A stretch of 12,753 nucleotides of DNA from an uncultured Deferribacteres bacterium. GTDB lineage: Bacteria; Zhuqueibacterota; Zhuqueibacteria; Zhuqueibacterales; Geothermadaptataceae. The stretch spans positions 1-12,753 of the forward strand of contig CAXHAT010000214.1 of NCBI GenBank assembly GCA_964014485.1. Direction: 5' to 3'. The notes beneath the pieces were generated by a model. That model made no database searches, had not been told where the DNA came from, and saw only the letters and a list, made by a program, of their open reading frames with translations. Numbering within the stretch: the first letter of the stretch is position 1; each line of letters begins with the position of its first letter. Positions 1,632 to 4,592 of the stretch are shown here, in pieces. Both the position numbers and the translations under genes were made by a program.

Positions 1632-1862
1632 ATGAACGTCTCAATCGAATACTGCGTCATGTGAAACTACAAGCCGAGAGCCCTTAGTTTAAGGGACGCG
1701 CTTCTTCGTTTTGACGCCAACCTGAACATTTCATTTATCAAATCCAAGGGCGGCGCATTTGAAATCCGCGTCGGCGAGAAGCTGATTTTTTCGAAAAAAC
1801 AGACCGGGCGATTTCCAGAGTACGAAGAACTTTTTTCACTATTAAAACGGGCGAACGCTTAG
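1632..1862 (+). CDS. SelW/SelT/SelH (Rdx-family) selenoprotein, 76 aa, CxxU motif, TGA (Sec) at 1662-1664
   Basis: Manual translation: MNVSIEYCVM-U-NYKPRALSLRDALLRFDANLNISFIKSKGGAFEIRVGEKLIFSKKQTGRFPEYEELFSLLKRANA*. Rdx hallmarks IEYCxxU, GGxFEI, LIFSK and GRFP lie on both sides of the TGA in one frame. AAAGG RBS at 1621-1625. Not in the ORF track because of the TGA. Confidence 0.92.
1671..1703 (+). promoter_or_regulatory. Putative bacterial SECIS element
   Basis: Directly 3' of the in-frame TGA: upper stem CCCTT (1681-1685)/AAGGG (1691-1695) with loop AGTTT (G early in the loop, followed by U) about 21 nt from the TGA; lower stem AAGC (1671-1674)/GCTT (1700-1703). Confidence 0.75.
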
Positions 1863-1902: not shown

Positions 1903-2039
1903 AAAACTGGCGAAAAAGGCCGAAATTGTCATGTTGGAAGCATCTTTTTTGATCCGATTCTTGAATTTTTGAGCATGATCTGTACTGGACGATAACAAAG
2001 ATTCCTTCAGAATGACAAAACGGGGCCGTGCGACGGCTC
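1903..2039. repeat. MITE/REP-like element family 2, copy A
   Basis: Similar to 8007-8139, with 27 nt identical (GATCTGTACTGGACGATAACAAAGATT at 1977-2003 and 8074-8100). Imperfect internal palindrome GTCATGTTGGAAGCATCTTT...AAAGATTCCTTCAGAATGAC (1928-2016). Outer boundaries approximate. Confidence 0.75.
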
Positions 2040-2126: not shown

Positions 2127-3041
2127 ATGTTGAGAAAACTTGTACTGTTTGTTGCGTTGCCGCTCTGTGCTTGCTCCCAGAAAAAAGAAATCCAGCCCGG
2201 AACTATTGATGCGGTACAAATGGAAAATTACCTGAACGCCCTCGCCGACAGCCTCCACGCGAGCTTGGGCGTGTCCTTTTTTGATTTGGAGACCGGGCAG
2301 GAATTTCATTTCAACGAGAAAGAATTGATGCACGCCGCCAGCACGATGAAGGTGCCTCTGATGATCGAGCTGTTTCGGCAGGCCGAAGCGAACGAATATG
2401 CAATGGATGACTCAATAATTGTTAAAAATGAGTTCCGGAGCATTGTGGACGGCAGCGCGTATTCGATCAGCGACGACAGCGAAAAAACGCTCTATGAAAA
2501 AATCGATCAGCCTGTTTCGATGCGCAAATTGAACGAGCTCATGATCACGATGAGTAGCAATCTCGCTACGAACCTGTTGATTGAAAAAGTTGAGGCCCGG
2601 CGCGTCATGCAGACGATGGCGGAAATCGGCGCCAACGACATACAAGTGCTGCGCGGCGTAGAAGATTTAAAGGCGTACCGTAAAGGTTGGAGTAATCGCA
2701 CAACGGCATTCGACATGATGCTGGTTATGCGCGCCATCGCCGAAAAGAAGATCGTTTCCGAGCAAAGTTGCGACGAGATGATTTCGATTTTAAAGCGTCA
2801 ACATTTTCGTAAAAAAATTCCCGCAGGCGTTCCGGTGGAAATCGAAGTCGCGAGCAAAACCGGCAATATCACGGCCATCGATCATGATTGCGCCATCGTT
2901 TTTCCCAAGGAGCGAAAGCCCTATGTTTTGGTCGTCCTAACCAAGGGCGTCGCGTCTCAGGAAACAGCCAGCGAAGCCATCGCGGCGATTTCGAAAAAAA
3001 TCTATGAAAGCCTGAGACCCGTTAACGATAACATTTCCTGA
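2127..3041 (+). CDS. Class A beta-lactamase-like serine hydrolase, predicted lipoprotein
   Basis: SxxK (HAASTMK), SxN (MSSNLATN) and KTG (SKTGNI) motifs in the expected order. Start moved to ATG 2127 because MLRKLVLFVALPLCAC is a lipoprotein signal; the ORF-track start at 2028 overlaps a repeat. Confidence 0.88.
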   Translation: MLRKLVLFVALPLCACSQKKEIQPGTIDAVQMENYLNALADSLHASLGVSFFDLETGQEFHFNEKELMHAASTMKVPLMIELFRQAEANEYAMDDSIIVKNEFRSIVDGSAYSISDDSEKTLYEKIDQPVSMRKLNELMITMSSNLATNLLIEKVEARRVMQTMAEIGANDIQVLRGVEDLKAYRKGWSNRTTAFDMMLVMRAIAEKKIVSEQSCDEMISILKRQHFRKKIPAGVPVEIEVASKTGNITAIDHDCAIVFPKERKPYVLVVLTKGVASQETASEAIAAISKKIYESLRPVNDNIS

Positions 3042-3320: not shown

Positions 3321-3380
3321 ATGAACTTTTTGAATAAATCGCGCCGTCACGATCGACGGGCGCTGAGGCGACACGGAGGT

Positions 3381-4592
3381 ATGCTTCAAAATTTGATGAC
3401 GAGAAGTATTGCGTCATTCTTAGTCGGCCTGATTTTAGTCGGGCTTACCGCTTGCAAACAAACCGAATTTTCCGTTGAGCTGGCCTACAACGACAAAAGC
3501 TCGGGAAAATCTCTTCCGTATTGGCCGCTAAAGCGCATCGACCTAGTCGCTCCAGATTCTGTGAACGCTTCTTTTAGATATGAGCGTGCGAAAGACGCTC
3601 AGCCGCTTATTGCTCAGCTCGCGTTAGGAAACACCAATCGCCCCGCCTATTTCTTGCTCGCCAAATCAGACGAGCGAAGCCTCTATTACGACTTGCTGTA
3701 CATCGATGAAAATCGGGATTTTAACTTCGATAATGACGGACCGCCCAGGCAATCACGCGGACAATTTATTCGCTCGCGCAACAGGCATTACACCGAATTT
3801 GACAACGTTCATTTGACTTATGGCTGGCAAACGCCGACAACGGTGCAGGCGGAATCGCTGTTGTGCAAAATTTATCTTTGGTACCCGGTCTCCGGCGCGC
3901 CGCAGTCCGCCTTCGTTATTCGCGAATCCTGGCGGGAAGGACGTTTTGAGTACAATAAGCAAAAAGCGTTTCTCTCTTTCGTAGACGACGATTACAATGG
4001 CGTCTTTGACGCCAACGACCGCTGGGCAATCGTGCCCGAAGACAGCTTAAACGATTCGATCTTAACCCAGCGCCACGAATTCCGGGACGTTACCAGACTC
4101 GGCTGGTTGGGCGAAACGCCGTTTGAAGTTTTGGAAATTTCACCGCGCGGCGATTTGATTAAACTGGTGCGAAAAGAAACGGAGTTAACGCGAGAAGTCG
4201 ATTTTGCCGCTGAATCTCCGTACTTAAACGAACCCAAACGCCCCAAGGCCGCGCGCGCAATTGAGTGGGAAACAAGCTATAACAGAGCAAAGCGCAAGGC
4301 GCGCGCTTTGCGCAAAAGCATCCTTGCGGTGTTCACGACCTCATGGTCGGGGCCGTCGCTGACGCTGGAGGAACGCACTTTTTCCGATTCCGAAATCGTA
4401 TCGCTTTCCGATAATTTTGTTTGCCTGAAAATTGACGGCGACAAAGAGCAAGCAGTGGTTGAGCGCTTCAAAATTCAGGATTATCCGACGATCCTGTTTA
4501 TAGACAGAAATGAAAAAGAGCTGTCGCGAATCATTGGATACCAACCCGCCGCAGAGTTTTCGCGTCTCTTAAAGGAGCAACTCAAACCGTAA
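3381..4592 (+). CDS. Lipoprotein with a C-terminal thioredoxin-like domain in which CxxC is replaced by SxxS
   Basis: Hydrophobic signal with lipobox LTAC. Two DxDxDG-like loops (YIDENRDFNFDND, FVDDDYNGVFD). C-terminal IEWETSY..AK..A...RKSILAVFTTSWSGPSLTLEERTF...FVCLKID...FKIQDYPTILFID...RIIGY fits a thioredoxin fold. Start uncertain (3381 or 3396; GGAGG at 3375-3379). Confidence 0.82.
   Translation: MLQNLMTRSIASFLVGLILVGLTACKQTEFSVELAYNDKSSGKSLPYWPLKRIDLVAPDSVNASFRYERAKDAQPLIAQLALGNTNRPAYFLLAKSDERSLYYDLLYIDENRDFNFDNDGPPRQSRGQFIRSRNRHYTEFDNVHLTYGWQTPTTVQAESLLCKIYLWYPVSGAPQSAFVIRESWREGRFEYNKQKAFLSFVDDDYNGVFDANDRWAIVPEDSLNDSILTQRHEFRDVTRLGWLGETPFEVLEISPRGDLIKLVRKETELTREVDFAAESPYLNEPKRPKAARAIEWETSYNRAKRKARALRKSILAVFTTSWSGPSLTLEERTFSDSEIVSLSDNFVCLKIDGDKEQAVVERFKIQDYPTILFIDRNEKELSRIIGYQPAAEFSRLLKEQLKP

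Follow-up and report, generated by a model that had tools for sequence, protein, structure and literature searches.

A SelW-like gene with an in-frame TGA, a putative SECIS hairpin and a complete set of selenocysteine genes in the genome of an uncultured bacterium

The window analyzed here, a stretch of 12,753 nucleotides from an uncultured Deferribacteres bacterium, in all likelihood carries an intact SelW-like (Rdx-family) gene at positions 1632 to 1862 of the + strand, whose UGA is decoded as selenocysteine (Sec) by means of a SECIS element and whose product is a CxxU oxidoreductase. This reading is carried by the family and the fold of the product, the conservation of the TGA at the active-site column, a hairpin that covaries, a complete Sec machinery in the same genome, and the use of TGA as an ordinary stop codon elsewhere. 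An initial annotation of this DNA had proposed an intact 76-residue Rdx/SelW-like selenoprotein of the CxxU type, and the family scores, the TGA column, and the Sec machinery back that proposal.

Read on the + strand, the gene runs from an ATG start codon (1632 to 1634) through MNVSIEYCVM to an in-frame TGA (1662 to 1664) and on through 65 further sense codons, including those for GGAFEI, LIFSKK, and GRFP, to a TAG stop codon (1860 to 1862), giving 76 codons and a product of 76 residues when TGA is translated as U. A Shine-Dalgarno-like AAAAGG (1620 to 1625, + strand), which may serve as the ribosome-binding site, lies 6 nt 5' of the ATG. The sequence reads as the initial annotation had it, with a ribosome-binding site, an ATG, IEYCVM-TGA-NYKPRA, and a frame that stays open to the TAG. 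The putative redox motif, Cys8-Val-Met-Sec11 (CxxU; 1653 to 1664, + strand), ends with the Sec codon and falls in the loop between a strand (residues 2 to 8) and a helix (residues 14 to 27) of the structural model. Under translation table 11, the sole + strand open reading frame (ORF) of at least 20 aa touching the stretch is a 23-aa frame (1593 to 1664) that closes at this TGA, and no + strand ORF of at least 20 aa lies over 1665 to 1862. Since no such + strand ORF crosses 1632 to 1862, a standard gene caller would leave the region empty. The earlier claim that standard callers miss the gene therefore stands for naive ORF callers, but for them only, as curated NCBIfam models of the family exist. 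An antisense ORF of 86 aa (1738 to 1998, - strand) was treated as spurious; it has no Pfam family and extends into the MITE-like repeat described below.

With Sec given as Cys to the profile and modeling programs, the translation scores 72.6 bits with the Pfam Rdx family (PF10262; cut-off 22.6) and aligns to positions 1 to 73 of the 74 in the profile, a score that speaks against an open frame past the TGA by chance. It also exceeds the cut-offs of the NCBIfam models TIGR02174 (SelT/SelW/SelH; 66.1 bits versus 34.2) and NF041051 (an equivalog; 91.3 bits versus 88, a margin of just 3.3 bits), so that all three models of the family recognize it, as the initial annotation had expected. The gene is the sole Rdx match in its genome. 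An AlphaFold2 model built on 19 homologues (pLDDT 92.1, pTM 0.81) predicts the order strand-helix-strand-strand-strand-helix, with strands at residues 2 to 8, 32 to 38, 43 to 47, and 50 to 54 and helices at 14 to 27 and 64 to 75, and places Cys8-x-x-Sec11 directly after the first strand and before the first helix. Its best Foldseek match is the solved bacterial Rdx protein 2FA8 (TM 0.89, rmsd 1.2), and Rdx structures reach TM 0.79 to 0.91, whereas ordinary thioredoxins reach just 0.5 to 0.6. A sequence search of the PDB returned seven solved Rdx chains (E = 1.3e-7 to 1e-3). By every defining feature that can be tested on the sequence and the model, the product is a member of the SelW-like/Rdx family; it is predicted to be small and cytoplasmic, and its modeled fold is thioredoxin-like.

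Among the 40 nearest relatives, 32 encode a homologue, each match with an in-frame TGA, and eight, whose genomes are 75 to 100% complete, gave no match to the window query. Across the phylum, 85 of 167 genomes match when the window's own genome is included (84 of 166 others, leaving 82 without a match to this query), at 36 to 60% identity. The TGA lies inside the match in 83 of these 85; in the remaining two genomes (G091 and G109), only part of the protein is matched and the match stops short of residue 11, meaning that every phylum match extending to residue 11 contains the in-frame TGA. These phylum tallies include two unpublished genomes (G016 and G023), and the exact column was verified in the 20 stored loci, namely the window and 19 relatives, where TGA occupies the CxxU column in 20 of 20 (19 of 19 when the locus from G023, marked unpublished, is set aside). 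Both Cys8 and position 11 are invariant across the 19 aligned homologues. The 65 codons past the TGA are open and conserved as well, with 46 to 60% identity to these homologues and 13 invariant columns. A scan of named genomes from other phyla yielded 18 loci, from groups including Latescibacteria, Krumholzibacteriia, Neomarinimicrobiota, Planctomycetota, Fusobacteria, Clostridia, Chloroflexi, and Actinomarina, with CxxU and TGA in 16; for the other two (L056 and L057), the script for the CxxU pattern gave no resolved motif.

Could the gene instead be a pseudogene, a Cys-type (CxxC) Rdx gene with a nonsense mutation from TGT or TGC to TGA, left untranslated past codon 10? The frame from the ATG at 1632 does end after 10 codons under table 11, but conservation already contradicts this reading: the TGA recurs at the same column wherever the homologues reach it, the codons behind it are maintained, and no Cys form of the gene was found across the phylum with the window query. 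Further arguments against it are the covarying hairpin 3' of the TGA and the complete Sec machinery in the genome, and we regard a pseudogene as exceedingly improbable. The intact selenoprotein gene is also in keeping with what the initial annotation had anticipated for the homologues, namely Cys or Sec at the TGA column, with TGA at 20 of 20 loci and Cys in the solved structure 2FA8. A passage of an earlier study reports very few Cys homologues of SelW-like proteins in Sec-using organisms and considers that Sec may be the original form (PMC1794560). The Sec-only homologues seen in the sequences of the sampled phylum fit this published view of Sec as the original state of the family.

A simpler objection would be a sequencing or assembly error at 1662 to 1664, with TGT or TGC as the true codon, in an assembly that is fragmented into 465 contigs. 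The TGA is read in the assembled Logan contigs of two public runs, X1 (covering 1300 to 1900) and X3 (1644 to 1906), each with 0 differences, so that the TGA appears in read-derived data as the initial annotation had hoped; a contig of a third run, X2, covers 1742 to 1920 only. These three runs come from one study that is possibly the source of the assembly, and the support from X1 and X3 is not independent. The stronger argument against an error is the TGA at the same place in the independent assemblies of the relatives, and we give such an error next to no credence.

The genome that contains the window (8.4 Mb in 465 contigs, 97% complete) encodes selA (566.6 bits), selB (332.3 bits; G000:C245:119-1975), selD (377.1 bits), and tRNA-Sec (68.8 bits), all above curated cut-offs, and ARAGORN likewise calls a tRNA-SeC with anticodon tca. 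All components of the Sec pathway are present, in agreement with the earlier prediction that the organism should have the Sec trait; their action on the mRNA of the SelW-like gene would follow by analogy. Might TGA instead be a sense codon throughout this genome, with Trp or Gly rather than Sec at position 11? The in-frame TGA itself would be expected under such an alternative code, which nothing beyond it favors. TGA closes 1,362 of the 3,702 open frames of at least 300 codons in this genome, and this use as an ordinary stop excludes a recoded genome. The Rdx gene itself ends with TGA in 7 of the 20 loci compared, tRNA-Sec, selA, and selB are present, and the in-frame TGA sits exactly at the redox Cys/Sec column of the family. 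The alternative code is thus contradicted by stop codon usage, and hardly any weight can be placed on it.

Other candidate selenoprotein genes were seen in the same genome. The selD gene (G000:C68:143-1069, - strand; locus L009) has an in-frame TGA near its N terminus, in TCG-U-AAKVSP, suggesting that the selenophosphate synthetase SelD is probably itself a selenoprotein here; its Sec codon presumably aligns with E. coli Cys17. Three frames of the AhpC/TSA family have an in-frame TGA in a UxxC motif (WUPFC, WUPYC, and YUGPC); they lie at G000:C217:2833-3219 (+ strand), G000:C371:2204-2647 (- strand), and G000:C40:8272-8565 (- strand). Judging by their sequences, these are likely to be additional selenoprotein genes that table 11 calling breaks. 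Formate dehydrogenase-type selenoproteins were not found: an in-frame stop lies inside none of the nine PF00384 matches in this genome.

How would the ribosome tell this UGA from a stop? A short hairpin inside the coding sequence (1679 to 1697, + strand), 17 to 35 nt past the UGA, covaries as expected of a bacterial SECIS and may act as one. In the window, five pairs join 1681 to 1685 with 1691 to 1695 around the loop AGUUU (1686 to 1690), whose G1687 lies 25 nt past the U of the UGA. When segments of 100 nt spanning the TGA are aligned without gaps for the 20 loci (alignment A1), the helix corresponds to columns 48 to 54 and 60 to 66 (window 1679 to 1685 and 1691 to 1697). There, 80.7% of the cells are paired versus 68.8% in shuffled alignments, and the covariation score is 0.343 versus 0.136, values that 0 of 500 shuffles reached in either case, with the shuffles ignoring kinship among the loci. 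Five of the seven helix pairs show changes on both sides, and pairing falls to 23.6 to 46.4% when the partner strand is slid by one to three columns. RNAalifold independently predicts the same hairpin, and two loop columns, A55 and G56 (the latter being G1687), are invariant in 20 of 20 loci. The stem is short, with five to seven pairs among the relatives and one internal mismatch common, and five or six pairs in the window itself. Because the hairpin lies within the coding sequence (ALSLK/ASSLK), part of its conservation is due to the protein. Folding of the single sequence 1655 to 1730 (76 nt) gave z = -0.13 versus shuffled sequences, a weak test for so short a hairpin. A longer lower stem in the minimum free energy fold of the window (columns 40 to 45 with 66 to 72) was rejected, since it is not conserved (45% of cells paired). 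Rfam gave no match at the gathering threshold over the whole window, nor at E values up to 1 over 1600 to 2130, leaving both the hairpin and the downstream repeat uncovered.

In the proposed decoding mechanism, SelD would make selenophosphate, and SelA would turn Ser-tRNA(Sec) into Sec-tRNA(Sec), as in the established bacterial pathway. With the ribosome at the UGA (1662 to 1664), the hairpin with its small apical loop and G1687 would act as the SECIS and bind SelB carrying Sec-tRNA(Sec), so that Sec would be inserted and the chain would not terminate. In the folded product, Cys8-x-x-Sec11 at the end of strand 1 would cycle between the selenol/thiol and the selenenylsulfide forms. From the motif and the predicted fold, the product is most likely a thiol-dependent CxxU oxidoreductase. 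Selenium incorporation, SelB binding, this redox chemistry, and a physiological partner of the product are features that we infer.

The gene is a further member of a known bacterial selenoprotein family, in a new uncultured host. It shares with the bacterial SelW-like selenoproteins (PF10262; TIGR02174, CXXU_selWTH; NF041051, SelTWH_Campy) the CxxU motif, a length of about 75 aa, and an in-frame hairpin behind the Sec codon; nothing categorical sets it apart from them, and it comes from an uncultured lineage whose genome is large. A part of the Sargasso Sea study describes SelW-like proteins as the most abundant selenoprotein family there, with 48 genes, the CxxU motif, and an unclear function (PMC1088965). 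In a section of a 2026 review, the family (PF10262, CxxU) is listed as "predicted with high confidence" and not among the experimentally verified ones (PMC13188914).

Six solved bacterial Rdx proteins, 2FA8 (Agrobacterium Atu0228), 2OBK (Pseudomonas fluorescens), 2P0G (Vibrio cholerae), 2OJL, 2OKA, and 3DEX, have the same fold as the model (Foldseek TM 0.85 to 0.91, rmsd 1.0 to 1.4 over 69 to 77 columns, identity 26 to 36%), and the solved bacterial proteins are also found by sequence (E = 1.7e-7 to 3.9e-4). The 2FA8 chain has Cys at the Sec column of the window, and the names of the other solved bacterial chains suggest Cys in them as well; these Cys-type proteins are 20 to 30 residues longer than the window product. 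Mouse SelW (2NPB; TM 0.79, sequence E = 0.001) and MIEN1/C17orf37 (2LJK; TM 0.83, sequence E = 1.3e-7) likewise have the Rdx fold with the motif after strand 1. Eukaryotic SelW mRNAs carry their SECIS in the 3' untranslated region, whereas the candidate SECIS of the window lies in the coding region just past the UGA, a contrast drawn in the legend to Figure 7 of PMC1088965. SELENOW binds 14-3-3, according to the abstract of PMC8508763, a partner for which no bacterial counterpart is known. As for SECIS elements of the fdhF type, one passage names a loop feature common to bacterial SECIS elements (PMC1088965), and G1687 does not vary among the 20 loci compared here; compared with the fdhF type, the stem in these loci is short (five to seven pairs) and outside all Rfam models.

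The initial annotation had placed the gene between a terminator and a repeat, and both flanks could be confirmed: a terminator-like hairpin (1508 to 1541) lies upstream, and a repeat begins 8 nt past the stop codon. This repeat is a MITE-like insertion of 204 nt (1871 to 2074) bounded by terminal inverted repeats about 23 nt long and situated between the SelW-like gene and the lipoprotein gene that follows it. Flank comparison revealed a target-site duplication of 8 bp, with a left copy cgccaaag (1863 to 1870) and a right copy cgtcaaag (2075 to 2082) that match at 7 of 8 positions. The element has 118 further matches of at least 130 nt in the genome; with its own copy counted, 60 lie on the - strand and 59 on the + strand, and 70 copies are end to end. 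The flanks match at 7 to 8 of 8 positions in 49 of the 55 copies tested, compared to 2 of 70 in a control taken 30 nt further out. Read depth in run X1 rises from 6.2 in the flanks to about 1,880 over the element, which suggests roughly 300 copies. A search of 20 relatives found no full-length copy of the element. A 40-nt inner module (element positions 43 to 82, window 1913 to 1952) recurs in about 27 places in G001, a genome of another genus (e.g., G001:C3:896948-896987), and this sequence match suggests a shared short repeat unit that is older than the full element.

Another question is whether the gene stands alone. The initial annotation took it to be monocistronic, which is doubtful given its neighbors. 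Upstream and co-oriented lies a gene for a 372-aa M29-family aminopeptidase (352 to 1470, + strand; PF02073, 190.9 bits), and downstream, also on the + strand, lies a gene for a predicted lipoprotein of the class A beta-lactamase family (2127 to 3041; PF13354, 187.5 bits). The ORF of the latter is open from 2028, with a likely start at ATG 2127; an alignment with seven relatives places the shared N terminus at MLRKLVL...C, with a Cys typical of lipoproteins. Further downstream, two genes away from the SelW-like gene, the window also encodes a protein of 423 aa (3321 to 4592, + strand) whose C-terminal domain is thioredoxin-like (PF13899/PF13098).

The synteny scan covered 50 of 56 flanking ORFs in 18 relatives' loci (among L020 to L038), the other six being two window ORFs scanned beforehand, two from G023 (unpublished), and two antisense ORFs that overlap the Rdx gene. 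The PF13354 gene is downstream and co-oriented in 14 of the 18 loci, and the M29 aminopeptidase gene is upstream and co-oriented in 13; in four loci of one genus, a gene for an ABM-fold protein (monooxygenase) lies between the M29 and Rdx genes. All loci with this block come from a single order, where they fall into two families (f1 and f2). In two loci of a third family (f5) of the same class, the gene is preceded by an Rrf2-type regulator and followed by either a flavin disulfide reductase or a nitroreductase, and the single locus of a fourth (f8), also of this class, has unrelated neighbor genes. No recurring neighbor was found across the 18 loci from other phyla, where the scan took in 38 of 59 ORFs and passed over loci that were near duplicates, fragments at the edges, and ORFs that overlap the gene. 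In one relative (G013), a frame downstream of the SelW-like gene (L037:1-1431, - strand) combines pentapeptide repeats with a TIR domain and the first part of PF13354; it runs off the locus and may be either a genuine fusion or a pair of genes with no stop between them.

The selenoprotein gene might therefore be real and yet form part of a conserved unit with the aminopeptidase and lipoprotein genes, into whose spacer the MITE was inserted. The recurring co-oriented neighbors argue for such a unit, as does the spacing to the downstream ORF, which varies among the relatives between 2 and about 290 nt and is 2 to 54 nt in some of them. In the window, this spacer is 264 nt, or 52 nt after subtraction of the MITE and one target copy, and a consensus scan found no + strand terminator between 1862 and 2127. 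On the other hand, the block is confined to one order, so that shared descent alone could explain it; the neighbors are unrelated in f5, in f8, and in the 18 loci from other phyla; and the spacing is about 180 to 290 nt in other relatives. The same consensus scan also matched a terminator-like site between the aminopeptidase gene and the SelW-like gene, namely the hairpin mentioned above with its T run, a 14-pair stem followed by TCTTTTTGTC (1508 to 1551 in all, + strand; a pattern match only). Nor is any shared task apparent for a redox protein of the cytoplasm and a lipoprotein that is exported. Overall, the gene block is specific to this lineage, co-transcription of the SelW-like gene with the downstream gene is possible from the arrangement of the sequences, and we consider a conserved unit unlikely, though far from implausible. 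That the SelW-like protein is functionally tied in this order to its conserved flanks (the M29 aminopeptidase, the ABM-fold monooxygenase in one genus, and the lipoprotein) is a long shot. If it were true, the block would for the first time place bacterial SelW-like proteins in a physiological context, and the MITE insertion seen here would be a natural uncoupling of the pair.

For the family, the intact SelW-like gene of the window is one more member of the selenoprotein family that was most abundant in the Sargasso Sea dataset and opens no new question; its putative SECIS hairpin, with its clear covariation, could seed a covariance model. For the organism, the finding would mean that an uncultured bacterium with a large genome decodes selenocysteine, with at least five candidate selenoprotein genes, namely, those for SelD, the SelW-like protein, and three UxxC peroxiredoxin-like proteins, and that gene calling with table 11 drops such genes from its proteome.
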